Position numbers and translations under genes: made by a program
Notes under the pieces: model-generated
Told to the model about the DNA's origin: nothing
The model's input: the letters and a program-made list of their open reading frames with translations, nothing else
Database searches by the model: none
Shown here: piece by piece, positions 3,738 to 33,976 of the stretch
How positions within the stretch are numbered: the first letter of the stretch is position 1
How the letters are laid out: every line of letters begins with the position of its first letter
Source of the DNA: Acidobacteriota bacterium
Lineage (GTDB): Bacteria; Acidobacteriota; CAIWXX01
Direction: 5' to 3'
Length of the DNA: 64,000 nucleotides
NCBI GenBank assembly: GCA_040755995.1
Contig: JBFMAF010000020.1
Location: forward strand, 1-64,000

Positions 3738-4475
3738 ATGACACGGAAGGAAGCGAGCGCCGAGGCTCGAGACAGCCAGTCGCCTCCCGCGCGATTTCGC
3801 CCTCCCGCCCTCCCGTTGAAGGGTCGAATCCTCGCAGGTGCAGCCGGGTTGCTCGCATCGAGCCTGATCCGGGTGCTGGGGAGGACCTGGCGATGCCAGG
3901 TCATCGGGAGAGAACATTACGAGAGGCTGATCGCGGATCGTACACCCTTCATAATCGCGGTCTGGCACGACAACATCATGGCCCCCATTTTCTGGCACCG
4001 CGGTGAAGGGATAAAGCCGATGGTAAGTCACCATCTGGACGGCGAGATGATAGCGCGGACACTGAGCCGTCTCGGATACCGCCCGATACGCGGCAGCAGC
4101 ACACGAGGAGGGTCGGAGGCGTTCGCCGAGATGGTCGGCGAGCTGAGCAACGGCCACCCATGCTCGGTGATGCCCGACGGGCCGCGCGGGCCGAGGCACG
4201 TCTTCAAGCCGGGCACGATCTTGATCGCCGGCCGGGCGGGCGCGAGCCTCCTGCCGCTGACCTTCGATGCCGCGCCGAAGATCGTGTTCAACAGCTGGGA
4301 TCGATTGAAGCTGCCGGGCCCCTTCGCGCGCGTCTCGCTTCGCTACGGTGTTCCGATCAAGGTGCCGGCGATTCTGGATGGAGAGGAGCTCGATCGGTTT
4401 CGAGAACGAGTCGAGGCCGATCTCAACGCGCTGGACGAGGCTGCGGAGAGTGACATCCGGTCGATTGCACGATGA
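3738..4475 (+). CDS. DUF374 / lysophospholipid acyltransferase-family protein
   Basis: AVWH, MVSHHLDGE, IRGSSTRGG, PDGPRGP, SWDRLKLPGPF motifs; GGAGG precedes ATG 3738. Confidence 0.88.
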   Translation: MTRKEASAEARDSQSPPARFRPPALPLKGRILAGAAGLLASSLIRVLGRTWRCQVIGREHYERLIADRTPFIIAVWHDNIMAPIFWHRGEGIKPMVSHHLDGEMIARTLSRLGYRPIRGSSTRGGSEAFAEMVGELSNGHPCSVMPDGPRGPRHVFKPGTILIAGRAGASLLPLTFDAAPKIVFNSWDRLKLPGPFARVSLRYGVPIKVPAILDGEELDRFRERVEADLNALDEAAESDIRSIAR

Positions 4476-7072
4476 TTGCGCGGCGCACTGTACTCATCCT
4501 CCTCGCCGCCGTTACTCTGCTGCCGTGCGACCCGGGGTTGGCATTCGACCCCAACAAGCCTCCCACGCAGTACATCCGCGACGTCTGGCAGACTGAGAAC
4601 GGCCTGCCTCAGAACTCGATCCTGCACATCGCGCAGACGCCGGACGGATACCTGTGGCTGGCCACATACGAAGGTCTGGTCCGGTTTGATGGGCTTCGAT
4701 TCACGGTCTTCGACAGCGAGAATACGCCGGAGATCACGAAGAACACCGTTTTCGCGATGCACGTCGCTCGCGACGGGTCGCTCTGGTTCGGCACATCCGG
4801 CGGCGGCCTGGTCCGGCACACGGGAGGCAGGTTCACGGCTCTTGGCGTGGCCGAGGGGCTATCCAATGGCATCGTACGCGCTCTGGAGGAGAGCCGCGAC
4901 GGGAGCTTGTGGATTGCCACGTACGGAGGCGGCTTGAACAGGCTCAAGGACGGCAAGGTGTCCGTACTCACATCAAGTGACGGCATCCCGAGCAACTTCC
5001 TTCTGGACGTGCTCGAGGACCGCGACGGAGGCGTATGGGTGGGGACGGCCGGAGCCGGACTGGCTCTGTTCACCGGCGGACGCTGGACGACTTACACCAC
5101 CGCCGAGGGGCTGGCTGGGATGTTCGTCCGGCGGATTCTCGAGGATCGGCTGGGTAACGTGTGGGTAGGCACCACGTCAGGTCTCAGCTGCTTCAGTGAA
5201 GGCAAGCTTGCGACATACACTCGCAAGCACGGGCTGCCGGGCGATGCAATTTTCGCCATATATGAGGATCTGGATGGGAACCTGTGGATCGGGACGGAGG
5301 GGGGCGGGCTGGCACTCTACAACGGTGGCAAATTCATCCCTTTCTCGCAGCGCCTGCCGCTCTCCGACAACGTTGTCACCGCTCTTCGCGAGGACGGCGA
5401 GGGGAGCTTCTGGATCGGGACCGAGAACGCCGGTCTGAACAGATGGAGGGTGGGCAAGTTCACGGCCTACACGAGCGTGGAGGGCGTCTCGGGGAGGACC
5501 ATCCGGGCCGTGTGCGAGAGCGGGGACGGAGGCCTCTGGATGGGATCGAGCGGGGGCGGCGTGACGTCGTTCAAGAACGGGAGTTTCCGTTCTTATACCA
5601 CCGGCAACGGCCTGCCCGATGACTACGTGAGGTCGGTCTGCGTTGACCGGAAGAACGACGTCTGGCTCGGAACACGCAAAGGCCTGTGCCGATTGCGCGG
5701 AGGTAAGGTCACGGTCTACACGACTCGCGACGGCCTCCCCGATGACAACGTCCGCGCCGTCTTCGAAGATCGCGGTGGCGCGCTCTGGCTGGGTACAAGA
5801 CATGGCCTGTGCTGCATGAAAGACGGAAAGCTCACTGTCTATGGCACCCGCGACGGCCTTGCCCATGACGACATTGCCACTATCACCCAGGGGTCGAACG
5901 GGGATCTGTGGTTCGGCACGAACGGCGGTGGAGTCAGCAGGTTGCGCGACGGCCGGTTCACGACGTTCTCTACGCGGGACGGACTCTCGAGCGACGTGGT
6001 CTATTCCATCTACTGTGACGCGGAAGGCAGCGTGTGGATAGGCACATACGGAGGTGGGCTCAGCCGGATTCGTGAAGGCAAGATCGATACGTGGACCAGG
6101 AGGTCCGGCCTCTTCGACAACGTCGCGTTTCAGATACTCGAGGACGCTCGCGGGCAGCTCTGGATGAGCTGCAACCGGGGCATCTACAGCGTGAGCAAGC
6201 GCGCACTCGACGACGTCGCGGCCGGCAGGACATCTTCCGTGCGTTGTGTGTCGTTCGGGAAAGCTGATGGGATGCGCAGCAGCGAATGCAACAGCGGCTG
6301 CCCCGCGGGCTGCAGGACGAGGGATGGCCGGCTCTGGTTTCCGACGTGCAACGGCGTTGTCGCGATCGATCCTGAGCACCTCGAGGAGAAGGAACAGCCG
6401 CCGCCGCTGGTGGTGGAAGATCTGTTGGTGGACGGCCAACACGTTGATCTTGGCGCGGAAAACGTGGTACCGCCCGGCAGCCACTCCCTGGAGATCCGCT
6501 ACACCAGCCCCAGCTTCCTGGCGCCTGAGCGCGTGAAATTCAAGTACCGGCTGGACGGCTTCGACCGAGACTGGGTGGACGTGGGAACACGGCGTGCCGC
6601 CTACTACACCAATCTCCCACCTGCCTCCTACACATTCAGCGTCAAGGCCTGCAACAACGGCGGTGTCTGGAATGAGACGGGCGCTTCCATCGGCTTCACT
6701 CTACTGCCGTTCTTCTACCAGACCGGCTGGTTCATCGCCCTGTGTGCGGCCGGCACCGTGTCGCTCGGCCTCTCTCTCCACCTTCTCCGAGTGCGGAGCC
6801 TGCGCCGGCGGCGCGAGGAACTGGCCCGGCAGGTGGACGATGCCTTGGCCAAGATAAAGGTGCTGAGCGGTCTGCTCCCCATCTGCGCCTGGTGCAAGAA
6901 GGTCCGCGACGATCAGGGGTACTGGAGCCAGATCGAAAGCTATATCAAGAAGCACTCCGAGGCGGAGTTTACGCATGGGATCTGCCCCGAGTGCGCCAGG
7001 AAGCTCTATGAGGGTGCCGGCTACGCTGCGCCGCCCGATACCGATACGACATCTCCGAGTGAGCATGATTGA
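4472..7072 (+). CDS. Membrane sensor: two-component regulator propeller repeats + Y_Y_Y + TM + short Cys/His C-terminal domain (no kinase domain)
   Basis: Signal peptide, many DxxGxLWxGTxGGGL blades, KFKYRLDGFDRDW...AYYTNLPPASYTFSV, TM helix, then LPICAWCKKVR...THGICPEC; ATGA overlap with the upstream gene. Confidence 0.9.
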   Translation: MIARRTVLILLAAVTLLPCDPGLAFDPNKPPTQYIRDVWQTENGLPQNSILHIAQTPDGYLWLATYEGLVRFDGLRFTVFDSENTPEITKNTVFAMHVARDGSLWFGTSGGGLVRHTGGRFTALGVAEGLSNGIVRALEESRDGSLWIATYGGGLNRLKDGKVSVLTSSDGIPSNFLLDVLEDRDGGVWVGTAGAGLALFTGGRWTTYTTAEGLAGMFVRRILEDRLGNVWVGTTSGLSCFSEGKLATYTRKHGLPGDAIFAIYEDLDGNLWIGTEGGGLALYNGGKFIPFSQRLPLSDNVVTALREDGEGSFWIGTENAGLNRWRVGKFTAYTSVEGVSGRTIRAVCESGDGGLWMGSSGGGVTSFKNGSFRSYTTGNGLPDDYVRSVCVDRKNDVWLGTRKGLCRLRGGKVTVYTTRDGLPDDNVRAVFEDRGGALWLGTRHGLCCMKDGKLTVYGTRDGLAHDDIATITQGSNGDLWFGTNGGGVSRLRDGRFTTFSTRDGLSSDVVYSIYCDAEGSVWIGTYGGGLSRIREGKIDTWTRRSGLFDNVAFQILEDARGQLWMSCNRGIYSVSKRALDDVAAGRTSSVRCVSFGKADGMRSSECNSGCPAGCRTRDGRLWFPTCNGVVAIDPEHLEEKEQPPPLVVEDLLVDGQHVDLGAENVVPPGSHSLEIRYTSPSFLAPERVKFKYRLDGFDRDWVDVGTRRAAYYTNLPPASYTFSVKACNNGGVWNETGASIGFTLLPFFYQTGWFIALCAAGTVSLGLSLHLLRVRSLRRRREELARQVDDALAKIKVLSGLLPICAWCKKVRDDQGYWSQIESYIKKHSEAEFTHGICPECARKLYEGAGYAAPPDTDTTSPSEHD

Positions 7073-13988: not shown

Positions 13989-14029
13989 TTGATTCCTAGT
14001 CTACTTTACATTAGACTACTCATGAGTAG
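13989..14029 (+). promoter_or_regulatory. Putative promoter overlapped by palindromic operator-like sites
   Basis: TTGATT-N17-TAGACT; TAGTCTA-N8-TAGACTA (13997-14018); perfect palindrome CTACTCATGAGTAG (14016-14029). Confidence 0.6.
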
Positions 14030-14036
14030 ACCAGCA

Positions 14037-15434
14037 ATGCAATTCATCGATCGAGAGAAGGAGCTTGCGGCTCTGGAAAAAGCATGGCAGGGGGACGAAG
14101 CGCAACTCCTGGTGATCTACGGCAAGCGGCGGGTCGGCAAGACGGAACTCATCAAGCAATTCATCAGGGACAAGCCCCATGTGTACTTCCTCAGCCAGCG
14201 CGTCAATGATATCGACAACCGCCGCTGGCTGGCTGAGCTGGCGGCCGAGCACTTCAAAGACGATTTCCTGCGGACAACGGGCTTCGCCGACTGGCGCGCC
14301 TTCTTCCAATATGGCCGGGACCGGATCAGGACGAGGACCGTCCTGGCTATCGACGAATTCCCCTACCTGGCAGAATCAGAGAAGGGGTTGCCATCGATCT
14401 TCCAGGCCGGATGGGACGAGTATCTCCGGAAAACGCCCGTTTTCCTGATCCTTTGCGGTTCGAGCATAGCCATGATGGAGAGCGATGTCCTGGCCGAAAA
14501 ATCCCCGCTATTCGGAAGGAGGACGGGGCAGATCCAGTTGAAACCATTCCGCTTCGCCGAGGCCCGAAGATTCTTTCCGCGGGCATCCTTCGACAGGTGT
14601 CTCGAGCTTTATGCCTTGGCGGGAGGCAATCCCAGCTACTTGAAGAGGCTGGATCCGGATCGCTCGGTCCTCGACAATATCATCGCACAGGTCCTCCCGC
14701 CCGAGGCATTCCTTGCCCGCGAAGTTGAGTTCCTGCTCAGGGAAGAGCTCCGGGAACCGCGCAATTACTTCGCCATCCTGAAAGCGATCGCCTTCGGCAA
14801 GAGCAAGATCGGCGAAATCGTCAATGACACCGGCCTCGACAAAGGGATCCTACACCGGTATCTCTTCACGCTCGACGACCTGCAGGTCATCTACAAGGAG
14901 GTACCTGTCACTGAGCGCCTGCCGCTCAAATCCCGTAAGGGCCTCTATCGTATCCAGGATCAATTCATCAAGTTCTGGTTCCGCCACATCCTACCAAATC
15001 GGACATCGATTGAAGAAGGCCGCGTCGAGAGGCTTGTTCCGCGCCTTGAATCGGACTTTCCAGCTCTCGTCGCGGAAAACTACGAAAGACTCGCCGCTGA
15101 CATCGTCCGAGCGCACGAGGACCTCTTCTTTCCGATGGACGCCGTTGGCCGATGGTGGAACAGGGAAGAGGAGATCGACGTGGCAGCGACTAACGAGGAA
15201 CGCCGGGAAATCCTCCTCGGCGAGGCCAAGTGGAGCCTTCGTCCCGTCGGGACAGACGTTTTTCGGGATCTGAAGCGGAAAGCTCCCCTCGTCGATTGGC
15301 ACGACGGCGAGAGGACGGAACGATTCTGCCTATTCTCAAGAAGCGGCTTTACGAAAGATATGCGTGAGCTCGCTCGCAGGGAGAGGGTCGTGTTGTTCCA
15401 CAAAGATCAGAAAGTGGATCTGCATCTAACCTGA
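14037..15434 (+). CDS. AAA ATPase (archaeal-type ATPase + wHTH + DUF234 PD-(D/E)xK-like domain)
   Basis: FIDREKEL, Walker A YGKRRVGKT, Walker B IDEFPY, LCGSS, SPLFGRRTG, C-terminal EIDV...GEAKWS; alternative start 14022. Confidence 0.9.
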   Translation: MQFIDREKELAALEKAWQGDEAQLLVIYGKRRVGKTELIKQFIRDKPHVYFLSQRVNDIDNRRWLAELAAEHFKDDFLRTTGFADWRAFFQYGRDRIRTRTVLAIDEFPYLAESEKGLPSIFQAGWDEYLRKTPVFLILCGSSIAMMESDVLAEKSPLFGRRTGQIQLKPFRFAEARRFFPRASFDRCLELYALAGGNPSYLKRLDPDRSVLDNIIAQVLPPEAFLAREVEFLLREELREPRNYFAILKAIAFGKSKIGEIVNDTGLDKGILHRYLFTLDDLQVIYKEVPVTERLPLKSRKGLYRIQDQFIKFWFRHILPNRTSIEEGRVERLVPRLESDFPALVAENYERLAADIVRAHEDLFFPMDAVGRWWNREEEIDVAATNEERREILLGEAKWSLRPVGTDVFRDLKRKAPLVDWHDGERTERFCLFSRSGFTKDMRELARRERVVLFHKDQKVDLHLT

Positions 15435-15804
15435 TGGTGGCCTGCTGGGTCACTCTGCAAGCCGCTGGATACGGGCGCGCCGTTGCCGGGAATGAATGAC
15501 AGAGGAGATCAAGACGCGGACTACGGGTCGAAAGCACTGGTCCCCCCGTTCCAGCCCCGGCCTCGGAAGGGGCGTCGCGGCATTGCCTCCCAGTCTCCAC
15601 CCAGTCGGTGTCTACCATTGGTTCACCACGCCCAGCCCGGGTCTTCCGGATGATCGCGAGGCAACTCCCCGGGACGCCCCCTATCTCATCCTACCGCCCT
15701 ACCGCGCGGCGCTGTTGATGCGGCGCGAGTGTGTCGGCTAGGATGTGAACGTGTAGGCGGTCTTTTCATCGTTCACCGAGCCAACGGTGTCGGGGGGATT
15801 TCGC

Positions 15805-18800
15805 ATGAGTGCTGAATATCTGATGGGACTCGACTTGGGCAGCAGCGGGGTACGATGCCTCATCGTGCGGCCGGACGGATCAGTGATTGGTTCCGGCGCG
15901 CGAGGTTGGAGGCCGGCGCCTGCGCGTGAGGTAGGACCCCTCTGTTTCACGATGGACCTCGACGAGATACGTCGCATCCTGGGCCAGGTGGTCCGGGAAG
16001 CGATGGGGAGATCGGCGATCCAGGCCACGGATATCGCAGGCCTCGCCTGCGCGGCCATGCGCTTCTCGTTCATCTTGATCGACTGCGATGGAAAGGAGCT
16101 GGTGGCGATCCCCAACCTGGATGTCCGTGCGTCGGCGGAATACCTGGAGATCGCCCGCGAGCATGGACAGATGTTCCACGGACGAACGGGCCACTGGCCG
16201 CTGCCGATCTTCGCTGCCGTCCGGCTGCTTCATCTATCTCGGTCCGCCCCGGAGCTTCTGAGCAAGGCAACTGCATTCCTCACGCTGGGTGACTGGGTCG
16301 GCCTGAGGCTCACCGGTCGAATCGCCACGGACCCCACTCATGCCGCAGAGACGATGACGTTTGATATCGAGCGGCGAGAGTGGGCCTGGGACCTCGTGGA
16401 TATGCTCGCGCTGCCCCGAGCGATCTTTCCTGACGTCTTGGGTGCCGGCGCGATCCTGGGATCGCTCACCGCCGAAGCTGCTGAGTGGCTTGGTCTCAGA
16501 CAAGGCACCCCCGTCGCTGTGGGATGCGCCGACACCCAATCGGCGCTGCTTGGCGCGGGAGCGATCGAGCCAGGCGATCTCGCAGTAGTGGCGGGGAGCA
16601 GCACACCCGTTCAGCTGGTCCTCGACGCACCGTTCATCGATCGAGAGGCCCGCGCCTGGACCGGCTGTCATGCCGCTCCAGACAAGGTCGTTCTGGAAAG
16701 CACCGCCGGCACGATGGGAGACGCACTCGACGCGGCCGCCCGCGTTCTCTATCCAGACTCCCGGAATCCAGTCTCGCGGCTGCTGGCTGAGGCCAGCCTG
16801 GCGATAGCAGGCAGCGGCGGTGTCATTTCTTCTTTCGGCACCAGCGTCATGTGCGCCTCCAGGATGACGCTGCCCGCGGGCAACATCTCACTCAGCCACT
16901 TCGCACTCGCAGGGGGCGGTCAAGACCGCGGCTGCATTCCACGGGCGATTCTCGAAGGCATGGCTTTCGCGGTCCGCGCGAACGCCGATCAGCTGCGACG
17001 GATAAGAACGTTCGATTCGGAGCGCGTGCGTCTCGCCGGCGGCCTGGCTCGCAACGCCCTCTGGAACCAGCTTGTCTCCGACGTGCTCGGGCAATCACTG
17101 GCAGTTTCGACGCAATGTGATTCGAGCGCGCTCGGTGCCTGCATTTGCGCGGGGGTTGCCGGTCAGGTGTTCGACTCGGTGCGGTCGGGCGTACAGGCAC
17201 TCGCACGCACCTGCGATGTCCAGCCCCATGCTGAACGGGTGCGGCTCTACCGGGACCGCTATGACGAGTGGCTGCGAATGCGGGACGCGCAGACCGAGCC
17301 GGATCAGATATTCGCCGACTCAGTGCTTCGGCGGATGTCCGTGGCGCCGCGATCTGTGCCGGCCAGAACGGCGAAGAAGCCGCACCTTCGGATTCTGGTG
17401 ACTGCTGAGCTGGATCAGGGAGCTCTCTCGGAGCTACGAGCTCTGGGAGAAGTGACGTATTCGAGCTATCGGGAGGAACTGCGAGTCTTGACCGGCGATG
17501 CGCTTGTCGAGGCGCTGAAGGGATTCCAGGTGCTTGTCACCGAGGCGGACATCGTCGACGCCGCGGCTCTCGAGCAGCTACCCGATCTCAGGGTCGTCGC
17601 CGTGTGCCGTAACGACGTGGTCAACGTGGATCTCAGTGCATGCACACGGTCGGGTATTGTTGTCTTCAACACACCGGGCCGGAACGCCGCCGCCGTGGCC
17701 GATCTCACGGTGCTGTTCTTGCTCATGCTGGCACGCAGGATGCCGCGAGCGGCGGCGTTCCTGAAGGAACACGGCGGCGAGGCCGGTGACCACGGGCGCA
17801 TGGGGATGGCGCACCTGGAGCTTCAAGGCCGCGAGCCCGGTCGCACGGTCGTCGGGCTGGTCGGGTTCGGATGGGTCGGCCGAGCGGTAGCGCGACGGCT
17901 CACGGGCTTTGACACCCGCGTGCTCGTCCACGATCCGTATGTCGACCCGGCGGAGATCTTCATGGCGGATGCCGCACCGGCCGATCTGGATACGTTGCTG
18001 TCGGAGAGCGACTTCGTCAGCTTGCATGCGCCCCTGACGGCCGAGACGACAGGGATGCTCGACGGAGCGAGGCTGGCGCGGATGAAACGCGGAGCCTCGC
18101 TCATCAACACGGCGCGTGCCGGTTTGGTCGACACCGCGGCCTTGATCGATGCGCTGCGCAGCGGACACCTCGCAGGCGCCGCTGTTGATGTGTTCGAGGA
18201 GGAACCGCCTGCATCCGATCACCCGTTACTCGCAATACCGAACGTCATCGCCACGCCGCACATCGGCGGCAACACCGTGGAGGTGGCGAGTCACCAGGGG
18301 CGAATCGTCGCGGATGCGCTCCGGGCGATAGTGGCCGGAGAGAAGCCGCGGTGCGTGCTCAACCCGGAAACCCTCGGCGACCTTCGTTGGGATGCTGCGC
18401 GTACAGGGCGACCTGCGGAAGACCTTGGGGCAGACAGCCGCGGGCCGGCACTCGATGTCACCGACCTGCAACGGGCGGGGCGCCCGTCGGATCCCAGCTC
18501 CAAGGTTTCGGCAACCGAGCTAGCGAAGGGGCAGCCCGTGGCGGGGCCGCCACCGATCGAGAGTGTGAAGCCCGTTGTCGGGCAGATGGAGCGGATCATC
18601 AGATCGTTCGTCAATCGCATCGGCGCGGACGCGCGCCTCAGGGCATTCGCCGCCAGGAATACGGTGATCAGCCACTACGTGCTAAGCGACCTGGGCACGG
18701 AGTTTCACTTCGGCTTCGAGCACGGTGCGGTGATCGGCGGACTCGGCCCACCGGGCAGACCGGCGGACGTCCGTCTCAGGGCGACGGCTGAGATTCTGGA

Positions 18801-19653
18801 CGGCGTCCTCTCCGGAAAGCTCAGCGGAGCCCGGATGGCAGTCACGGGTAAGCTCGCCTTCAGCGGCAACATCCGTCTGGCGATGAGCATGCAGCGGATC
18901 AGCAGTGAGGTCATGGAGGCATACAACCTCGCGCGCGATGAGGCCGGAGGAATAGAGTTCGGGCCGGAAGCCGCCCCAGCGCGCGAGGCTCCCGCCGTCG
19001 TTCGTCGTGAACCGGCCGGCGCAGATGACCCGAGAGCGGCGATCGTCGAGGTCGTTCGCGAGCTGTTCGATGCCGGTATGATCACGCCGACAGGCGGAAA
19101 CGTCAGCACCCGAGCGCCTGACGGCGGCGAGCTGTGGATCACGCCGAGCCAGCTGTACAAGGGGAGGCTTGGCCCGGAGCTGATGGTGCGGATCGACTTG
19201 GATGGCGTCCCGGTGGATCCGGATGCGTGGGCTCCGTCGAGCGAGTGGATGCTCCACTGCGACATCTACAAGGCGCGGCCTGACGTCCATTCCGTCATAC
19301 ACGCACATGCTCCCTACGCAACGATGCTCGTTCTCGCCGACCTCCCGTTCTCTCCCGTGACGTGCGAGGCGGCGTTGTTCGGCGACCTGCCGCGCGTGCC
19401 GTTCGTTTTTCCGGGCACTCCGGAGCTCGCAAGATCGGTGGTGGCGGCGCTGGGCAAGGGACGAGCCGTGTTGCTCCAGAATCACGGGGTCGTGGTGGCG
19501 TCGAGCAGTCTGAGGCAGGCGGCCAACGAGGTCGAGATGATCGAACGCGCCTCGCAGCTGATCGTCGGCTGCGCGATGGCCGGCAAGAAGCCGGTGAGGA
19601 TGCCGAAGGAACACCTGGAGATGATGCGTGAAATCGGCGGGCTGATGGGATGA
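15805..19653 (+). CDS. Multidomain enzyme: FGGY sugar kinase + D-2-hydroxyacid dehydrogenase + SCP2 domain + class II aldolase
   Basis: GLDLGSSGVR / GCADTQ / AGGLARN (FGGY); GLVGFGWVG, INTARAG, DVFEEEP, TPHIGG (dehydrogenase); ADVRLRATAEILDGVLSG...TGKLAFSGN (SCP2); GGNVS, PSSE, HAH, LLQNHG (aldolase). Confidence 0.9.
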   Translation: MSAEYLMGLDLGSSGVRCLIVRPDGSVIGSGARGWRPAPAREVGPLCFTMDLDEIRRILGQVVREAMGRSAIQATDIAGLACAAMRFSFILIDCDGKELVAIPNLDVRASAEYLEIAREHGQMFHGRTGHWPLPIFAAVRLLHLSRSAPELLSKATAFLTLGDWVGLRLTGRIATDPTHAAETMTFDIERREWAWDLVDMLALPRAIFPDVLGAGAILGSLTAEAAEWLGLRQGTPVAVGCADTQSALLGAGAIEPGDLAVVAGSSTPVQLVLDAPFIDREARAWTGCHAAPDKVVLESTAGTMGDALDAAARVLYPDSRNPVSRLLAEASLAIAGSGGVISSFGTSVMCASRMTLPAGNISLSHFALAGGGQDRGCIPRAILEGMAFAVRANADQLRRIRTFDSERVRLAGGLARNALWNQLVSDVLGQSLAVSTQCDSSALGACICAGVAGQVFDSVRSGVQALARTCDVQPHAERVRLYRDRYDEWLRMRDAQTEPDQIFADSVLRRMSVAPRSVPARTAKKPHLRILVTAELDQGALSELRALGEVTYSSYREELRVLTGDALVEALKGFQVLVTEADIVDAAALEQLPDLRVVAVCRNDVVNVDLSACTRSGIVVFNTPGRNAAAVADLTVLFLLMLARRMPRAAAFLKEHGGEAGDHGRMGMAHLELQGREPGRTVVGLVGFGWVGRAVARRLTGFDTRVLVHDPYVDPAEIFMADAAPADLDTLLSESDFVSLHAPLTAETTGMLDGARLARMKRGASLINTARAGLVDTAALIDALRSGHLAGAAVDVFEEEPPASDHPLLAIPNVIATPHIGGNTVEVASHQGRIVADALRAIVAGEKPRCVLNPETLGDLRWDAARTGRPAEDLGADSRGPALDVTDLQRAGRPSDPSSKVSATELAKGQPVAGPPPIESVKPVVGQMERIIRSFVNRIGADARLRAFAARNTVISHYVLSDLGTEFHFGFEHGAVIGGLGPPGRPADVRLRATAEILDGVLSGKLSGARMAVTGKLAFSGNIRLAMSMQRISSEVMEAYNLARDEAGGIEFGPEAAPAREAPAVVRREPAGADDPRAAIVEVVRELFDAGMITPTGGNVSTRAPDGGELWITPSQLYKGRLGPELMVRIDLDGVPVDPDAWAPSSEWMLHCDIYKARPDVHSVIHAHAPYATMLVLADLPFSPVTCEAALFGDLPRVPFVFPGTPELARSVVAALGKGRAVLLQNHGVVVASSSLRQAANEVEMIERASQLIVGCAMAGKKPVRMPKEHLEMMREIGGLMG

Positions 19654-19800: not shown

Positions 19801-22458
19801 ATGGTTCTTTGTTCCAACTGCAAGTCTCAGAATGCGCCTGGAAGCAATGTCTGCGCGAAATGTGGTGCCGCTCTTCCTGAAGAGATAACGTCAGCCACCG
19901 CGGGGACGCCGATTCTGGTGGTACGCTGGCCAGGCGGGAAAACCGAGGAGCACGCCCTGGTCAAGGCATCCACGCGGGTGGGGCGTGGACTGAACAACGA
20001 GATCGTGCTCGACTTCCCCACCGTCTCCGGCAACCACCTCGAGCTGCAGCGCAGCGCCGGGCAGCTCCTCGTGGTCGACCTCGGCAGCACCAACGGCACG
20101 CAGCTCAACGGCTACCTCATCACCCCAAAGGTTCCTTACACGCTGCTGACAGGCGACGTGCTCCGCGTCGGCGACTTCACCGGAAACTCGGTGAGCATGG
20201 GACTGAAGCCCCCGGTCGAAGAAGCAGGGTGGGTGCGTGAGGTCGGCAGCCAGGACCTGTCGGACTTCCCGCGCGTCATCATCGGCCGCGATCCGGATAC
20301 CCAGCTCCATCTGGAGCATGCCACCGTATCGAGGAGGCACGCGGAGATCGTGCGGCAAGACAGTGGCCACGCCATCCTCGACCTCGGCAGCGCCAACGGT
20401 ACGTTCGTCAACGGCCGGCGCGTGAGCGGCTCGCGAATGCTCGCCGTAGGCGACGTGATCCAGATCGGGCCCTTCCGCTTCACTTACGACGGACGGCTCG
20501 AGCGACTCACCACGGTCGTCAGCCGCGGTCACCGGCTGGACGCCGTGGGAGTCGGCGTGCAGGTCGCGGACGGAAGAATGATCCTCAGGGACGTTTCGCT
20601 GTCCATCGCGGGCGGCGAGTTCGTGGCGCTGGTTGGGGGCAGCGGAGCCGGCAAGTCGACCCTGCTGAAGGCGATGAACGGCTACAATCCCGCCAGCCAC
20701 GGCCGCATGCTGATCGACGGCAAGAACCTCTACGAGAACCTCGACGCCTACCGCAACCTGATGGGATTCGTCCCGCAGGACGATATTATCCACAAGGAGC
20801 TCCCCGTCCGCCGCGCGCTCTGGCACGCCGCCAGATTGAGACTGCCTGACGCCAGCGGAGACGAGATCCGCAAGCGAGTCGACGAGGTCCTCGCCACACT
20901 TGAACTGACGGAACACGCCGACAAGCCCGTCCGAGTCCTGAGCGGCGGGCAGAGGAAGCGCGTGAGCATCGCCGTGGAACTGCTCGCGCAGCCCGTTCTG
21001 CTGTTCCTCGACGAGCCCACATCCGGGCTCGATCCCGGCCTCGAGAAGAAGATGATGTACGACCTGAACCGGCTCGCGGACCAGGGACGCACAGTGGTGC
21101 TCGTGACCCACGCCACGGGCAACATCGAGCAGTGCCACCACGTGGCATTCCTGGCCGAGGGCCGGCTGGCCTACTACGGGCCTCCACGCGACGCGATCTC
21201 GTTCTTCCTGGCACGCGATTTCTCGGACATCTACCTGAAGCTGTCCAAGGAGAACGAGCCCGAGAGAGCCCGGCTGCTGCCTCCCGGCGGTCCCACGGAC
21301 TCGCCTGATGGCAGGCTGCACGCGCCGGGGCAAGCCGGAGCCACGCCCAGAGGGCCGTCATTGTCTCCGGCCGAGGTCTGGGCCGATCACTACCAGCACT
21401 CCGACCTCTACAAGGAGTACGTCGGCATCAGCCAGTCGCACATCGCCGCCGCGGCGCAGGCACCGGCGGAGCCCGCGCCCAAGCCGGTCGGGCGTGCCCG
21501 TGACTCCGTCCTCCGCCAGATCTGGGTGCTCGCGCGGCGCCAGTTCGACCTGATCCGGCATGACTGGCGCACCCTCTTCGTCCTATTGGCCATGATGCCG
21601 ATCATCGCAGGCATGTTCGCGGCCGTGAGCGGGCCGAGCGACCTCGTGGGCACTCAGCTGAACGCCTCCGAGATTGACGAGGAGCTCAAGGCCGATGTCA
21701 AGGGCGCAGCGGTCGGGGAGACGGCGGAGTTCGTGCCTGCGCCGACCGCCATCAAGCTCATCACGATGCTCTGCCTCGCACTCACGCAGGCAGGCACATT
21801 CGGTGCCGCGTACGAGATAGTGAAGGAGCGCGCGATATTCAAGCGCGAGCGCGCGGTGAATCTGCGTGTGCTGTCGTACCTGTCGTCGAAGGTGATGGTG
21901 CTGGGAGCTTTCGCAGTGCTGCAGGTCGCATGCGCACTGGTCATACTCGGGCTTCGTGTCGATTTCAGCTTCAGCCCGATCCTCGACGCATTGCCCAACG
22001 CGAGCTTCGAGCTCTTCGTAACGCTGCTCCTGGCGGTGCTCGCGAGCATCGCCTTCGGCCTGTTCATCTCGGCGGTGGTGCCCACGGCCGACATCGTCCT
22101 GTACGTGATCCTGATCCAGCTCTTCGTCCAGATCATCCTGGCCGGCACGCTGTTCCCACTGCCTGACAACCCGGCCTCCAGGCTGATGATCTCGCGGTGG
22201 AGCATCGATGCGGTCGGCGCGACGGTGGGCATACGCGAGCTCAACGACCAGAGCCGCGTATGCAGAGTGATCGAGGTTCCGGAGACGAAGGAGACGATCA
22301 CAAACTGCAGCGCCGCTGCCATCAGCGAGAAGGACCTGTCTCTGCCGTACACGCACACGCGCGAGCACCTGCTGACGTGCTGGGGAGCGCTCCTGGCTCA
22401 GGCGCTCGCCTGGGGTCTTCTCACGATGATCGTACAGGCTCGCAAGAAGATCGATTGA
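19801..22458 (+). CDS. Zinc-ribbon + FHA + FHA + ABC ATPase + ABC-2 permease (Rv1747-like)
   Basis: CSNC...CAKC; VGR...VSGNH...DLGSTNGT; IGR...VSRRHA...DLGSANGT; GGSGAGKS, LSGGQ, LDEPTSGLD; C-terminal TMs. Confidence 0.93.
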   Translation: MVLCSNCKSQNAPGSNVCAKCGAALPEEITSATAGTPILVVRWPGGKTEEHALVKASTRVGRGLNNEIVLDFPTVSGNHLELQRSAGQLLVVDLGSTNGTQLNGYLITPKVPYTLLTGDVLRVGDFTGNSVSMGLKPPVEEAGWVREVGSQDLSDFPRVIIGRDPDTQLHLEHATVSRRHAEIVRQDSGHAILDLGSANGTFVNGRRVSGSRMLAVGDVIQIGPFRFTYDGRLERLTTVVSRGHRLDAVGVGVQVADGRMILRDVSLSIAGGEFVALVGGSGAGKSTLLKAMNGYNPASHGRMLIDGKNLYENLDAYRNLMGFVPQDDIIHKELPVRRALWHAARLRLPDASGDEIRKRVDEVLATLELTEHADKPVRVLSGGQRKRVSIAVELLAQPVLLFLDEPTSGLDPGLEKKMMYDLNRLADQGRTVVLVTHATGNIEQCHHVAFLAEGRLAYYGPPRDAISFFLARDFSDIYLKLSKENEPERARLLPPGGPTDSPDGRLHAPGQAGATPRGPSLSPAEVWADHYQHSDLYKEYVGISQSHIAAAAQAPAEPAPKPVGRARDSVLRQIWVLARRQFDLIRHDWRTLFVLLAMMPIIAGMFAAVSGPSDLVGTQLNASEIDEELKADVKGAAVGETAEFVPAPTAIKLITMLCLALTQAGTFGAAYEIVKERAIFKRERAVNLRVLSYLSSKVMVLGAFAVLQVACALVILGLRVDFSFSPILDALPNASFELFVTLLLAVLASIAFGLFISAVVPTADIVLYVILIQLFVQIILAGTLFPLPDNPASRLMISRWSIDAVGATVGIRELNDQSRVCRVIEVPETKETITNCSAAAISEKDLSLPYTHTREHLLTCWGALLAQALAWGLLTMIVQARKKID

Positions 22459-31009: not shown

Positions 31010-33976
31010 ATGAATCCAAGAGAACTGAAACCACACGAAGCCTCTTTGAAGCTGTCGATCGCCGCGGGCATCATCGCACTTCTCGTTCCCTGGGGCGGAT
31101 GCGCAGAGCCCACTTCCTTCTCCATCGAGCAGGTGCTCGCAGCTCCATTTCCATCCGATCTCGTCGTCGCTCCCGGGGCGCAACGGGTGGCGTGGGTGTT
31201 CAACGCGAGAGGCATACGCAATATCTGGGTCGCCGACGGGCCTGATTTCACCGGCTCGGCGAGACCGATCACAAGGTTCAGAGAGGACGACGGGCAGGCC
31301 ATCACCAGCCTCCGCCTCACACCCGACGGACGCACAGCCGTGTTTGTGAGAGGCAGCGAAGCCAACGCGGCAGGGGAGATCGCGAATCCGCGCAGTCTGG
31401 CCGCTGAGATCAAGCAACAGGTGTTCGCGGTCGAGGTGGGCGGCCGGGGCGAGCCGCGGATGCTCGGCGAGATGGGTGTGCTCGAAGAAGGCGGCGAGGA
31501 CTTGCAAATCTCACCAGACGGCCAGCACGTCGTCTGGTCTGCGAACAAACAGCTCTGGGTCGCAGCCGTAGACTCCAGGGAGTCCACGACGGCGATTGCC
31601 GGCATCCGCGGATCGAACAGCCAACCCAGGTGGTCGCCGGACTCGCAGCGAATCGCGTTCGTCAGCGATCGCGACGATCATTCACTGGTCGCGGTGATCG
31701 AGCTCGGAGGCAAGAGTGTACTCTACCTCTCGCCCAGCGCGGACCGTGACGCTCTTCCGCGCTGGTCGCCGGACGGCAGATTGATCGCGTTCGTCCGGCT
31801 GCCGGGCAAGCAGCGCAGAATGCCGATCATCCCGGAACCGCCCACCCCCTGGTCGATCTGGGTGGCCGACCCGACCAACGGCGCAGGGCGCGAGGTGTGG
31901 CGAAGCGGGGAAGAGCCGGACGACTCGTTCCCGTTTCTTACGGCGGATCGTTCGTTCTGTTTCGCGGCCGGGGCCAGGCTCGTATTCGCATCCGAGCAGG
32001 ATGGGCGCAACCATCTGTATTCGGTCCCGGTCGATGGGGGCCAAGCCCGGCTCCTCACGCCGGGCGATTTCGACGTCGAACACGTGACCCTGAGCGCCGA
32101 CCGGACCTCGGTGCTATACACGTCGAATCAAGGAGACGTGGACCGCCGGCACGTCTGGCGAGTGCCCACGGGCGCGGGCGCGCCGAAGGCGCTCACATCC
32201 GGTGAAGGTGTCGAGTGGTCGCCCGTCGAGACGGCAGGCGGCGATGCTGTTCTGTGTCTAGCCTCGTCGGCAACGAAGCCCGCGACGCCTTGCCTCGTCA
32301 CACCCGGCCCCGTGCGCGCCATCGCGGATAGGGCCCTTCCGAGCGACTTCCCATCGGAGAAACTTGTCACACCGCAGCAGGTCATCCTCAAGAGCCAGGA
32401 CGGAGTGACGGTGCACGGCCAGCTGTTCGTTCCTCGCCAGCACGCCACGGCGCCGATGCCCGCGGTCATCTTCATTCACGGAGGTCCCGTTCGTCAAATG
32501 GTCCTCGGGTTCCACTACCTGGACTACTATCATCACGCGTATGCGATGAATCAGTACCTCGCGAATCGCGGATACGTAGTGCTGTCCGTGAACTTCCGAA
32601 CCGGCATCATGTACGGCCGCGCGTTCCGCGAGGCGGAGGCGGCCGGTTGGAGAGGCTCCTCGGAATACACGGATATCGTTGCGGCGGCCCGGTACCTGGC
32701 CGCCCGCGCAGATGTGGACCCCAGGCGCATCGGCCTGTGGGGCGGTTCCTACGGCGGGCTGCTGACGGCCCTGGCGCTCGCGCGCAACTCGGACCTCTTC
32801 GCCGCAGGCGTCGATCTGCATGGAGTTCACGACTGGTCGGCATTTCTTTCATGGCTGTCTGATGCGGCCGAGCGGCCGCCTGATCTTGACGAGGCGATGA
32901 GGCTCGCCTTCACATCCTCTCCTGTGGCGGCCATCGATACGTGGCGTTCCCCCGTGCTGCTGATCCACGGCGACGATGACCGGAACGTGCCATTCAGCGA
33001 GACAACCGACCTTGTGCAGCGCCTGAGGGCGCAGCACGTACCGTTCGAAGAACTCGTGCTCCCGGATGAGGTCCATGATTTCCTCACCTGGGAGAGTTGG
33101 GTACGTGTGTACCGGGCGACGGCCGATTTCCTCGACCGGAGGCTCATGGGGGTTAATTCAGGAGGTGTGCGAGTGAGCGAGCGGATGACTCGTTCGGCCG
33201 ATGGGGTCCAAATAGCCTACAGCGCTGCGGGCAGCGGCCCCCTCGCGCTCGTCTTCATTCACGGCGGATTTGCGGACCGGTCTTTCTGGTCCAATCAACT
33301 CACGTCGCTGGCCGGTCGCTACCGCGTCCTAGCTGTGGACCTGGCCGGGCACGGCGCATCGGGTGGCGACAGGAAGCAGTGGACGCTTCAATCTCTCGGG
33401 GAGGACGTGCGTGCGGTCGTTGAGGCCGAGAGGCTCGATCGAGTCGTCGTGATCGGGAACTCGATGGGAGGCCCGGTGGCGCTCGAGGCTGCGCGCCTGA
33501 TGCCCGGCCGTGCGATTGCTGTGATCGGCGTCGACACCTTCCACCTTCTGGCGTATCGTCCTGACCCGAAGGAGTGGGAGGCACGGATGGAGGCATTCAG
33601 GAAGGACCGGCGCGGAACCTGCGAAGAGATGGTCAAGCAGCTATTCCACCGGGATGCAGATCCCGCGCTCGTGGAGAACGTCCGGGCCCGAATGTGCCAG
33701 CAATCCACAGAGGGTGCAGTGCTGGCGCTGTCTGGGCTCGAAGACTACGACGGCGAGGCCGCCGCGCGGGCGGTGAAGGTACCCATCGGCTGCGTGAACG
33801 GCGACCTGTATCCGACCAATGTCGAGGCGAATCGCGCGACAGCTCCGGGATTTCAGGCCGTCATAATGCCCCACATGGGACACTACCCGATGCTGGAGCG
33901 TCCGGTGGAATTCGACCGAAACCTGGATGAGTTGATCACGCGACTCCTTGGAGAACCGGGTCCGAAGAGACCGTGA
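31010..33976 (+). CDS. Secreted S9 prolyl oligopeptidase-family peptidase fused in frame to a second alpha/beta hydrolase
   Basis: Signal peptide, PD40-type propeller (WSPD repeats), IHGGP, GGSYGG, HGDDDRNV, DEVH; then IHGG, DLAGHGAS, GNSMGG, GHYPMLERP. Confidence 0.88.
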   Translation: MNPRELKPHEASLKLSIAAGIIALLVPWGGCAEPTSFSIEQVLAAPFPSDLVVAPGAQRVAWVFNARGIRNIWVADGPDFTGSARPITRFREDDGQAITSLRLTPDGRTAVFVRGSEANAAGEIANPRSLAAEIKQQVFAVEVGGRGEPRMLGEMGVLEEGGEDLQISPDGQHVVWSANKQLWVAAVDSRESTTAIAGIRGSNSQPRWSPDSQRIAFVSDRDDHSLVAVIELGGKSVLYLSPSADRDALPRWSPDGRLIAFVRLPGKQRRMPIIPEPPTPWSIWVADPTNGAGREVWRSGEEPDDSFPFLTADRSFCFAAGARLVFASEQDGRNHLYSVPVDGGQARLLTPGDFDVEHVTLSADRTSVLYTSNQGDVDRRHVWRVPTGAGAPKALTSGEGVEWSPVETAGGDAVLCLASSATKPATPCLVTPGPVRAIADRALPSDFPSEKLVTPQQVILKSQDGVTVHGQLFVPRQHATAPMPAVIFIHGGPVRQMVLGFHYLDYYHHAYAMNQYLANRGYVVLSVNFRTGIMYGRAFREAEAAGWRGSSEYTDIVAAARYLAARADVDPRRIGLWGGSYGGLLTALALARNSDLFAAGVDLHGVHDWSAFLSWLSDAAERPPDLDEAMRLAFTSSPVAAIDTWRSPVLLIHGDDDRNVPFSETTDLVQRLRAQHVPFEELVLPDEVHDFLTWESWVRVYRATADFLDRRLMGVNSGGVRVSERMTRSADGVQIAYSAAGSGPLALVFIHGGFADRSFWSNQLTSLAGRYRVLAVDLAGHGASGGDRKQWTLQSLGEDVRAVVEAERLDRVVVIGNSMGGPVALEAARLMPGRAIAVIGVDTFHLLAYRPDPKEWEARMEAFRKDRRGTCEEMVKQLFHRDADPALVENVRARMCQQSTEGAVLALSGLEDYDGEAAARAVKVPIGCVNGDLYPTNVEANRATAPGFQAVIMPHMGHYPMLERPVEFDRNLDELITRLLGEPGPKRP
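33173..33976 (+). CDS. Possible independently initiated alpha/beta hydrolase (internal in-frame start)
   Basis: GGAGGT at 33161-33166, 6 nt before in-frame GTG 33173, at the domain boundary. Confidence 0.5.
   Translation: MSERMTRSADGVQIAYSAAGSGPLALVFIHGGFADRSFWSNQLTSLAGRYRVLAVDLAGHGASGGDRKQWTLQSLGEDVRAVVEAERLDRVVVIGNSMGGPVALEAARLMPGRAIAVIGVDTFHLLAYRPDPKEWEARMEAFRKDRRGTCEEMVKQLFHRDADPALVENVRARMCQQSTEGAVLALSGLEDYDGEAAARAVKVPIGCVNGDLYPTNVEANRATAPGFQAVIMPHMGHYPMLERPVEFDRNLDELITRLLGEPGPKRP

Follow-up and report, generated by a model that had tools for sequence, protein, structure and literature searches.

What reaction would call for a kinase, a dehydrogenase, an SCP2 domain and an aldolase within a single polypeptide? 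This question is raised by a gene located in the first 64,000 nucleotides (forward strand) of contig JBFMAF010000020.1 of an Acidobacteriota bacterium (GenBank assembly GCA_040755995.1); this entire stretch is referred to below as the window. The initial annotation interpreted the gene as a possible whole catabolic pathway in one protein, in which a lipid-linked polyol could be phosphorylated, oxidized and cleaved. The present analysis revealed that the fusion family is a real, widespread and uncharacterized enzyme system, and it leans slightly towards a specific function, in which the fusion protein would clip a three-carbon sugar phosphate from the polyol tail of bacteriohopanepolyols. No published description of the architecture, or of hopanoid-degradation genes, was found in the literature searched (mostly excluding subscription journals and supplements); within that literature the architecture is, as initially supposed, uncharacterized.

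Architecture of the fusion protein

The start of the open reading frame (ORF; Table 1) was placed at the ATG, since homologous proteins start at this position; an in-frame GTG is present upstream, at 15787. As anticipated by the initial annotation, the predicted protein contains, in this order and all above the curated Pfam cut-offs, (i) the kinase domains FGGY_N (residues 5-250, 127 bits) and FGGY_C (378-452, 44 bits), (ii) the dehydrogenase domains 2-Hacid_dh (530-853, 68 bits) and 2-Hacid_dh_C (638-821, 185 bits), (iii) the SCP2 domain PF02036 (955-1032, 33.5 bits with a cut-off of 21.3) and (iv) Aldolase_II (1079-1252, 153 bits). The motifs pointed out earlier are also in place: GFGWVG (687-692), R771, E800, H819, PSSE (E1147), H1166/H1168 and H1227. 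A search for this architecture showed that all 120 listed homologues (of 187; 43-52% identical, the query aside) carry the same six Pfam families, so the fusion, which is present as a single copy in the host genome, is not an assembly artefact, and this explanation was rejected. In 120/120 aligned proteins the residues G687, G689, G692, R771, E800, H819, E1147, H1166, H1168 and H1227 are invariant. Mean pairwise identity is highest for the dehydrogenase (68%), and that of SCP2 (52%) is on a par with the kinase. The ESM Atlas returned generic cluster names only, and promoter and terminator scans were uninformative.

The structure model covers the last 364 residues only (919-1282; pLDDT 91, pTM 0.81); assessment of the kinase and dehydrogenase pockets was based on sequence. 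The identity of the third module, which had been set as a test of the initial annotation, was confirmed by the Pfam match and by the fold: the SCP2 part of the model matches human SCP2 (Z 12.8, root-mean-square deviation (rmsd) 2.1 Å over 110 residues). The structures nearest to it are carriers of sterols and fatty acids, and the domain is likely to be the lipid carrier of the fusion.

The kinase module can be assigned to the FGGY carbohydrate kinases, as both Pfam domains exceed their cut-offs and the catalytic Asp and ATP-binding motifs are retained (D10, R86, N104-x-D106-x-R108, D243, G412-G413). Its nearest families are LsrK, XylB and GlpK, and it is far from FucK (116 bits, cut-off 471). 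The best match is LsrK (PDB 5YA0), with which it shares the MR and NxDxRA motifs. In contrast to LsrK, it is fused to three other modules and no lsr operon is seen around it; it was also rejected as an AI-2 kinase on its score against the LsrK profile NF008187 (232.9 bits, cut-off 528). Among FGGY kinases, family membership is linked to reaction order, and the position of the module near LsrK, XylB and GlpK favours phosphorylation before oxidation.

Membership of the second module in the D-2-hydroxyacid dehydrogenase family is evident from the Pfam domains, the GxGxxG motif and the R771/E800/H819 triad, and D710 suggests NAD as the cofactor. Phosphoglycerate dehydrogenase (SerA) was rejected as its identity, because the score for TIGR01327 (224.9 bits) is below the cut-off of 454. 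The carboxylate-binding loop is replaced by C601-R602-x-x, accompanied by an invariant T579-E580-x-D582. In PMC6303947 the conserved Gly of this loop is given as Gly73. The corresponding position is occupied by D604 (ungapped alignment to SerA, the register being taken from sequence alignment only), and the four residues found most often in this column of the 120 proteins do not include Gly; the module thus has invariant Arg, Glu and Asp in place of the canonical carboxylate-binding Gly. The altered loop and the T-E-x-D motif would fit a non-acid substrate.

The aldolase module has the catalytic Glu, three metal-binding His and phosphate-site residues of class II aldolases (T1096-G-G-N1099, S1145-S-E1147, H1166, H1168, H1227), which align to both FucA and DrdA, its closest relatives. 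The model matches fuculose-1-phosphate aldolase (Z 28.3) and, in fold and active site, DrdA (PDB 6BTD, rmsd 1.6 Å). FucA, the OtnC decarboxylase and the AraD-type epimerase were rejected as identities, since the curated cut-offs were missed (99/264, 108/250 and 105/251, score/cut-off). The combination of an FGGY kinase and a metal-dependent class II aldolase with Glu and three His resembles the L-fucose and L-rhamnose routes (FucK-FucA, RhaB-RhaD), from which the fusion differs in its kinase type, in T-x-E-A-A replacing the HYMIA wall of FucA, and in the additional dehydrogenase and SCP2 modules. Its kinase and dehydrogenase presumably also resemble B. subtilis YoaC/YoaD, whose function is given in PMC2885750 as no more than a guess.

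Distribution and modular organization of the family

The best 80 of 496 confirmed stretches from a GTDB scan were taken as loci, with flanks of up to 10 kb (many shorter) and with gene calls made by a codon-usage script written for this analysis. According to record titles, the carriers include Anaerolineae, other Chloroflexota, Myxococcota, other deltaproteobacteria, Thermoleophilia, Mycobacterium persicum, M. innocens and Bellilinea caldifistulae; the last is in culture, and its locus (L037) has neither HpnA nor HpnO. The exact order kinase-dehydrogenase-SCP2-aldolase was found in 63 of 84 gene calls (the 80 loci plus the window). The remaining 21 are truncated at contig ends, split, have a doubled SCP2, are shorter forms, or have a domain match in two pieces.

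Stand-alone dehydrogenases of about 50% identity also exist, and among their loci are split operons with an SCP2 gene, such as GntR-SCP2-dehydrogenase-kinase-aldolase-AFOR-aminotransferase-M28-small ORF-HpnA (L174, identical in sequence to L099) and START-like-dehydrogenase-SCP2-kinase-aldolase (L176, L180). As SCP2 is retained in split operons as a separate gene (at least 8 loci), it is part of the pathway, with the fusion being optional. Two tandem SCP2 domains are present in five fusions (L012, L031, L045, L048, L072), and a START-like lipid domain accompanies the system in 2-3 loci. The idea of a lipid-linked polyol cleaved by a phosphorylate-oxidize-cleave sequence is thereby supported, SCP2 being kept in split operons and as conserved as the kinase. 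The fusion itself is dispensable, for the same four parts serve as separate genes in another order, and the channelling suggested by the initial annotation is a mere possibility.

Sets lacking SCP2 were found as well (L182-L184, L186, L187 and Paracoccus, together with kinase-dehydrogenase fusions of about 890 aa). The catalytic core would thus be a general polyol-cleavage cassette, of which the SCP2 version is probably the lipid-adapted form. In the Paracoccus set, on a plasmid of P. seriniphilus (L171:2871-8578), an ABC transporter and an arylsulfatase precede the kinase, dehydrogenase and aldolase genes in fusion order, and this set is a candidate sulfated-polyol pathway. In two other loci (L177:2462-5680, L178:1897-5308) tandem genes converge on a split SCP2-dehydrogenase-kinase-aldolase-AFOR operon; one of these genes was scanned as a fusion of a DHDPS-family protein with formaldehyde-activating enzyme. 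In other lineages, both fused and SCP2-less forms repeatedly have Ser/Thr kinases and relatives of the FHA-domain ABC transporter of the window (Table 1) as neighbours. A complex prediction for the separate SCP2 and aldolase of L174 scored 0.00 (mark 0.32) and was not used as evidence.

The SCP2-less sister sets, of which L183 has a sugar ABC transporter and that of Paracoccus follows a sulfatase, could also mean that the family degrades a soluble sugar, a polyol or the AI-2 signal DPD, SCP2 being a membrane tether or regulator. The best family and structure of the kinase (LsrK) and a DeoR/LsrR-type regulator, scoring below cut-off, that precedes 5/80 loci would agree with this. We regard such a role as rather improbable, in view of the low LsrK score, of the absence of lsrACDB, lsrF and lsrG around the window gene and among the scanned neighbour representatives of relatives, and of the persistence of SCP2 as a separate or doubled domain, or in the company of a START-like one. 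The membrane tether that the initial annotation had offered as an option also explains the neighbourhoods described below less well than a lipid-substrate role does.

Gene neighbourhoods and the nature of the substrate

The neighbourhoods were classified with thresholds set by us, and counts refer to the 80 loci. An HpnA gene lies in the fetched flanks of 10 of them, nine scoring above the TIGR03466 cut-off (367.65); scores below it were obtained for L063 (359.8, just under) and for Mycobacterium L013 (126, far under). An HpnO-like aminotransferase is present in nine loci. It is 49-54% identical over its full length to a gene of a Streptomyces hpnC-hpnD-hpnE-shc-hpnH-ispG-dxs cluster, which is annotated only as an aminotransferase, so that the HpnO label derives from the cluster position. 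Its best matches in the plasmid collection were also Streptomyces genes (50%; one context inspected). The HpnA and HpnO-like pair adjoins split and fused forms alike, in several clades and two phyla; L007 of genome G045 is an example of such an operon. In trees, the operon aminotransferases fall with the gene of the Streptomyces cluster and separately from paralogues, and the nearest relatives (62-67%) of the operon HpnAs belong to biosynthetic clusters, with weak node support (0.66-0.82).

In one locus (L056) the fusion is located between shc/hpnG-like/hpnB and hpnA/hpnH/hpnM-like genes; its close kin (L054, L059, L108) have no hopanoid genes in the fetched flanks. A partial second kinase module and an unassigned ORF lie upstream of the fusion within the same hopanoid cluster (L056:7794-9729), an arrangement that suggests local rearrangement.

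Other recurrent neighbours are an M28 hydrolase (8 loci), aldehyde-handling enzymes of three unrelated families (17 loci: AFOR 9, aldehyde dehydrogenase (ALDH) 4, LuxC 4) and the lipid-degradation genes for P450, CoA ligase or SCP2-type thiolase (20 loci). Of the 80 loci, 39 have one or more hopanoid, aldehyde or lipid-degradation markers. The recurrence of lipid-degradation and hopanoid genes is in line with the lipid-linked substrate of the initial annotation; the class is supported, and hopanoids, its best-supported members, had not been named. Two mycobacterial loci (L013, M. persicum; L014, M. innocens) have genes for an atypical aldehyde dehydrogenase and an epimerase-fold protein downstream of the fusion, opposite a wax-ester synthase; shc and hpnH were not found in these two genomes. 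In L024 (3208-19386) the fusion lies between ispA-dxs-ispH and a BNR/MMPL/DUF1302 set resembling lipid-uptake genes.

The same chemistry might act on a different hydrophobic polyol, such as a phytosphingosine-type base, an alkane-tetraol or a ribityl-aromatic compound. In operons, the M28 hydrolase and aminotransferase lie upstream of the fusion, relatives' loci have GH1, GH2, GH38, GDPD and sulfatase genes nearby, and the sterol and fatty-acid carriers nearest to the SCP2 domain would suit such a substrate; in the host, moreover, no hopanoid-linked genes were detected. There is also an analogous case, the fin cluster proposed for anaerobic breakdown of the ribityl tail of riboflavin (bioRxiv 10.64898/2026.02.13.705874), in which a kinase, an alcohol dehydrogenase, an aldolase and an ALDH act on a ribityl-bearing ring compound. 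This cluster, itself just a candidate pathway in that source, differs from the fusion in using RibF and a class I aldolase and in lacking SCP2. For phytosphingosine, an amidase, transamination at C2, the kinase and the aldolase would yield dihydroxyacetone phosphate (DHAP) and a fatty aldehyde. However, the sphingoid route requires no dehydrogenase, which is the best-conserved module, and no ceramidase family was found among the neighbour representatives scanned (part of the genes). A different polyol would also leave unexplained both the partners akin to hopanoid-cluster genes and the copy inside the shc cluster, and we consider it unlikely.

Co-occurrence with hopanoid genes was analysed in the class to which G045 belongs (record title Anaerolineae), with 201 genomes sampled and three candidates scored per genome. 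Fused or split orthologues are present in 26. The HpnO-like gene was detected in seven genomes, all of them carriers (6/25 carriers versus 0/175 non-carriers with the seed excluded), and hpnH in none of these seven. HpnA exceeds the cut-off in 17 genomes, comprising eight carriers (only one with hpnH) and nine non-carriers, seven of which have shc or hpnH adjoining HpnA. Fuller rescoring of 13 non-carriers, including the nine with HpnA, gave no orthologue of the fusion system. Fisher values, with the seed excluded, are 2e-6 and 1e-3. Among the 80 carrier genomes, nine have the HpnO-like gene beside the fusion; hpnH was not detected in eight of these, and one has a split match. Several genomes of the sampled Chloroflexota class (L207-L214) carry shc, hpnH and hpnA together and are probably hopanoid producers. 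The operons of relatives therefore resemble hopanoid side-chain biosynthesis (HpnH, HpnG, HpnO, HpnA) in containing HpnA and the HpnO-like gene and, once, in lying within an shc cluster; they differ in that shc or hpnH was not detected in most carriers with HpnA/HpnO, in a direction that appears degradative, and in a host devoid of close homologues.

Proposed cleavage of the bacteriohopanepolyol tail

Hopanoids are major bacterial membrane lipids, and the compounds formed by their breakdown serve widely as molecular fossils (PMC12583986). HpnH attaches the 5'-deoxyadenosyl group to diploptene; after removal of adenine by HpnG, the resulting ribosylhopane is either aminated by HpnO or made into bacteriohopanetetrol by an unidentified enzyme (PMC12583986). 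The tetrol is therefore 5-hopanyl-5-deoxyribitol, with C35 as its sole primary hydroxyl. The kinase would phosphorylate this terminal hydroxyl, the dehydrogenase would oxidize C34 to the ketose, and the aldolase would cut the C32-C33 bond to give DHAP and a C32 hopanoid aldehyde, with SCP2 holding the ring system or the C32 hopanal. Because the tail stems from 5-deoxyribose, the intermediate would be 5-hopanyl-5-deoxy-D-ribulose 1-phosphate, a lipid analogue of the DrdA substrate. In relatives, the M28 hydrolase, the HpnO-like aminotransferase (running backwards) and HpnA (as a reductase) may funnel amino-hopanoids into the tetrol, and AFOR, ALDH or LuxC may remove the aldehyde, pulling an unfavourable cleavage. 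The fusion would thus not be the whole pathway in one protein, as first suggested, since relatives need these partners.

The nearest known system is 5-deoxyribose salvage, the DHAP shunt (DrdK-DrdI-DrdA), in which phosphorylation and formation of a 5-substituted ribulose 1-phosphate are followed by cleavage, by a class II aldolase, into DHAP and an aldehyde (PMC6079011). The fusion differs in having an FGGY kinase and a dehydrogenase where the shunt has its kinase and isomerase, in the added SCP2, in its single polypeptide and in its presumably hydrophobic substrate. No isomerase domain was detected in the fusion protein or among scanned neighbours, which sets it apart from the DHAP shunt, and a dehydrogenase in place of the isomerase implies that the entry substrate would be a polyol, not an aldose. 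DrdA cleaves 5-deoxyribulose 1-phosphate, and such equilibria are about 1e-4, so that a pull is needed (PMC6079011). This would explain both the lipid carrier beside the aldolase and the three aldehyde-handling families nearby.

The same equilibrium favours condensation, and the aldolase could instead join DHAP to an SCP2-held lipid aldehyde made by LuxE/LuxC or AFOR, after which the dehydrogenase, HpnA and the aminotransferase would finish a polyol or amino-polyol head group. The synthetic direction remains conceivable in the light of the LuxE link: the LuxE/LuxC pair adjoins 4 loci, and LuxE was matched in 6/50 carriers versus 0/30 non-carriers. The host, too, has such a pair on another contig, an FHA-domain ABC transporter follows the gene, and one copy of the fusion lies in a biosynthetic cluster. 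On the other hand, 44/50 carriers have no LuxE-like match, the kinase would be superfluous and a phosphatase required, and the GntR/TetR regulators, hydrolases, ALDH and beta-oxidation genes are in keeping with catabolism. Synthesis therefore appears improbable.

Tail clipping would supply a first enzymatic route by which C35 polyols become C32 hopanoids, common compounds of sediments. In Anaerolineae, Myxococcota, other deltaproteobacteria, Thermoleophilia and some mycobacteria, the gene would then serve as a marker, and it encodes a single soluble protein that can be assayed. The operon logic further predicts that HpnA is the reductase turning ribosylhopane into bacteriohopanetetrol. In a broader proposal, for which we regard the arguments as evenly balanced, the family would be the committed enzyme of dedicated bacteriohopanepolyol breakdown, with which non-producing anaerobes and soil bacteria harvest DHAP from the hopanoids of others, leaving C32 hopanals and acids, and HpnA would be the missing ribosylhopane reductase that makes bacteriohopanetetrol. 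Even with another lipid, the system would represent lipid-polyol cleavage with an atypical dehydrogenase.

Several observations weigh against hopanoid tail clipping. Characterized dehydrogenases of this family act mainly on 2-hydroxy or 2-keto acids, and oxidation of a polyol phosphate is inferred. No function is established for HpnA, and HpnO is difficult to distinguish from other aminotransferases (PMC12583986). Seventy of the 80 loci have no hopanoid gene nearby, and 41 have none of the marker classes, many of the 80 being short. The Fisher values are overstated, because the genomes are kin and mostly incomplete assemblies. In addition, hpnH passes in 22 of 80 carrier genomes, mostly of Myxococcota and other deltaproteobacteria, which makes a role in producers (recycling or synthesis) possible; shc passes in 14 of the 51 carrier genomes tested. 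The remaining points concern the host. Its genome (99.8% complete) contains no match to shc, hpnG or hpnE, no close hpnH, HpnA or HpnO (best 26-39%; hpnH-like 26-29%) and no P450 of the neighbour type. The window copy has a long branch and, of 264 conserved columns, deviates at 20, the second-highest count among the 120 proteins (the median being 4), and its other neighbours in the window are unrelated housekeeping genes.

The copy in the Acidobacteriota host

Since no hopanoid-linked genes were detected in the host, the proposal of tail clipping by the window copy is borrowed from its relatives, and a role in hopanoid synthesis in this host was rejected (no shc or hpnH). The host would obtain DHAP and NADH from free tetrol present in its environment. 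Several AFOR paralogues are present in the genome; an M28 hydrolase of the neighbour type is not. A LuxE-like/LuxC-like pair (host contig C49:17487-20364) shares 55-63% identity with its counterpart adjoining the fusion in four Actinomycetota (Thermoleophilia) loci; in four host relatives tested for it, one distant match (26%) was obtained.

In a tree of 127 sequences with near-complete kinase and dehydrogenase (Paracoccus L171 dropped; several deep nodes weak), the window protein falls (support 0.96-0.99) among Thermoleophilia copies accompanied by HpnA and the HpnO-like gene, and the sister group of this clade is an Anaerolineae clade of the same kind. No full-length match to the fusion was found in 40 relatives of the host, two of them from its family (the unpublished genome G025 being counted). 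Acquisition of the fusion by transfer is thus suggested. A horizontally acquired copy might be decaying or repurposed in this host while the family is functional elsewhere. The absence from these relatives, the deviations at conserved columns, the lack of partner genes and a GC content at third codon positions (GC3) of 0.76, compared with 0.83-0.85 for four nearby genes, point in that direction. However, the ORF is intact over 3.8 kb, every catalytic residue is present despite the divergence, and two other window genes have a similar GC3 (0.76-0.79), which leaves decay or repurposing highly improbable.

Other features of the window

The fusion gene is followed by the FHA-domain ABC transporter, a GAF/HisKA protein and urocanase (Table 1). 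The transporter is a possible partner of the fusion: relatives of 35-38% identity lie near the system in eight other loci, partial matches were obtained in just two of the 40 host relatives, and within the host genome no other full-length FHA-domain ABC transporter was found. The AAA ATPase gene upstream looks unrelated to the fusion and possibly mobile.

Table 1. Positions of the fusion gene, its modules and the adjoining genes in the window
Feature	Position	Strand	Residues	Remarks
Four-module fusion gene (P0001)	15805..19653	+	1,282 aa	Uninterrupted ORF, ATG 15805 to stop 19653
FGGY kinase module	15805..17295	+	1-497	Pfam, conserved residues
D-2-hydroxyacid dehydrogenase-family module	17392..18363	+	530-853	Pfam, triad
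SCP2 domain, likely lipid carrier	18577..18918	+	about 925-1038	Pfam, fold match
Class II aldolase module, FucA/DrdA type	19030..19650	+	1076-1282	Pfam, fold, residues
FHA-domain ABC transporter	19801..22458	+		Pfam; 148 bp downstream of the fusion
Archaeal-type AAA ATPase with DUF234	13989-15434			Directly upstream of the fusion; low GC (57%)

Two further genes of the window are worth mentioning. At 31010-33976, an S9 peptidase and a second alpha/beta hydrolase are encoded in a single ORF of 988 aa. At 4472-7072, a two-component propeller/Y_Y_Y sensor, in which no kinase domain was detected, ends in a short Cys-containing tail.

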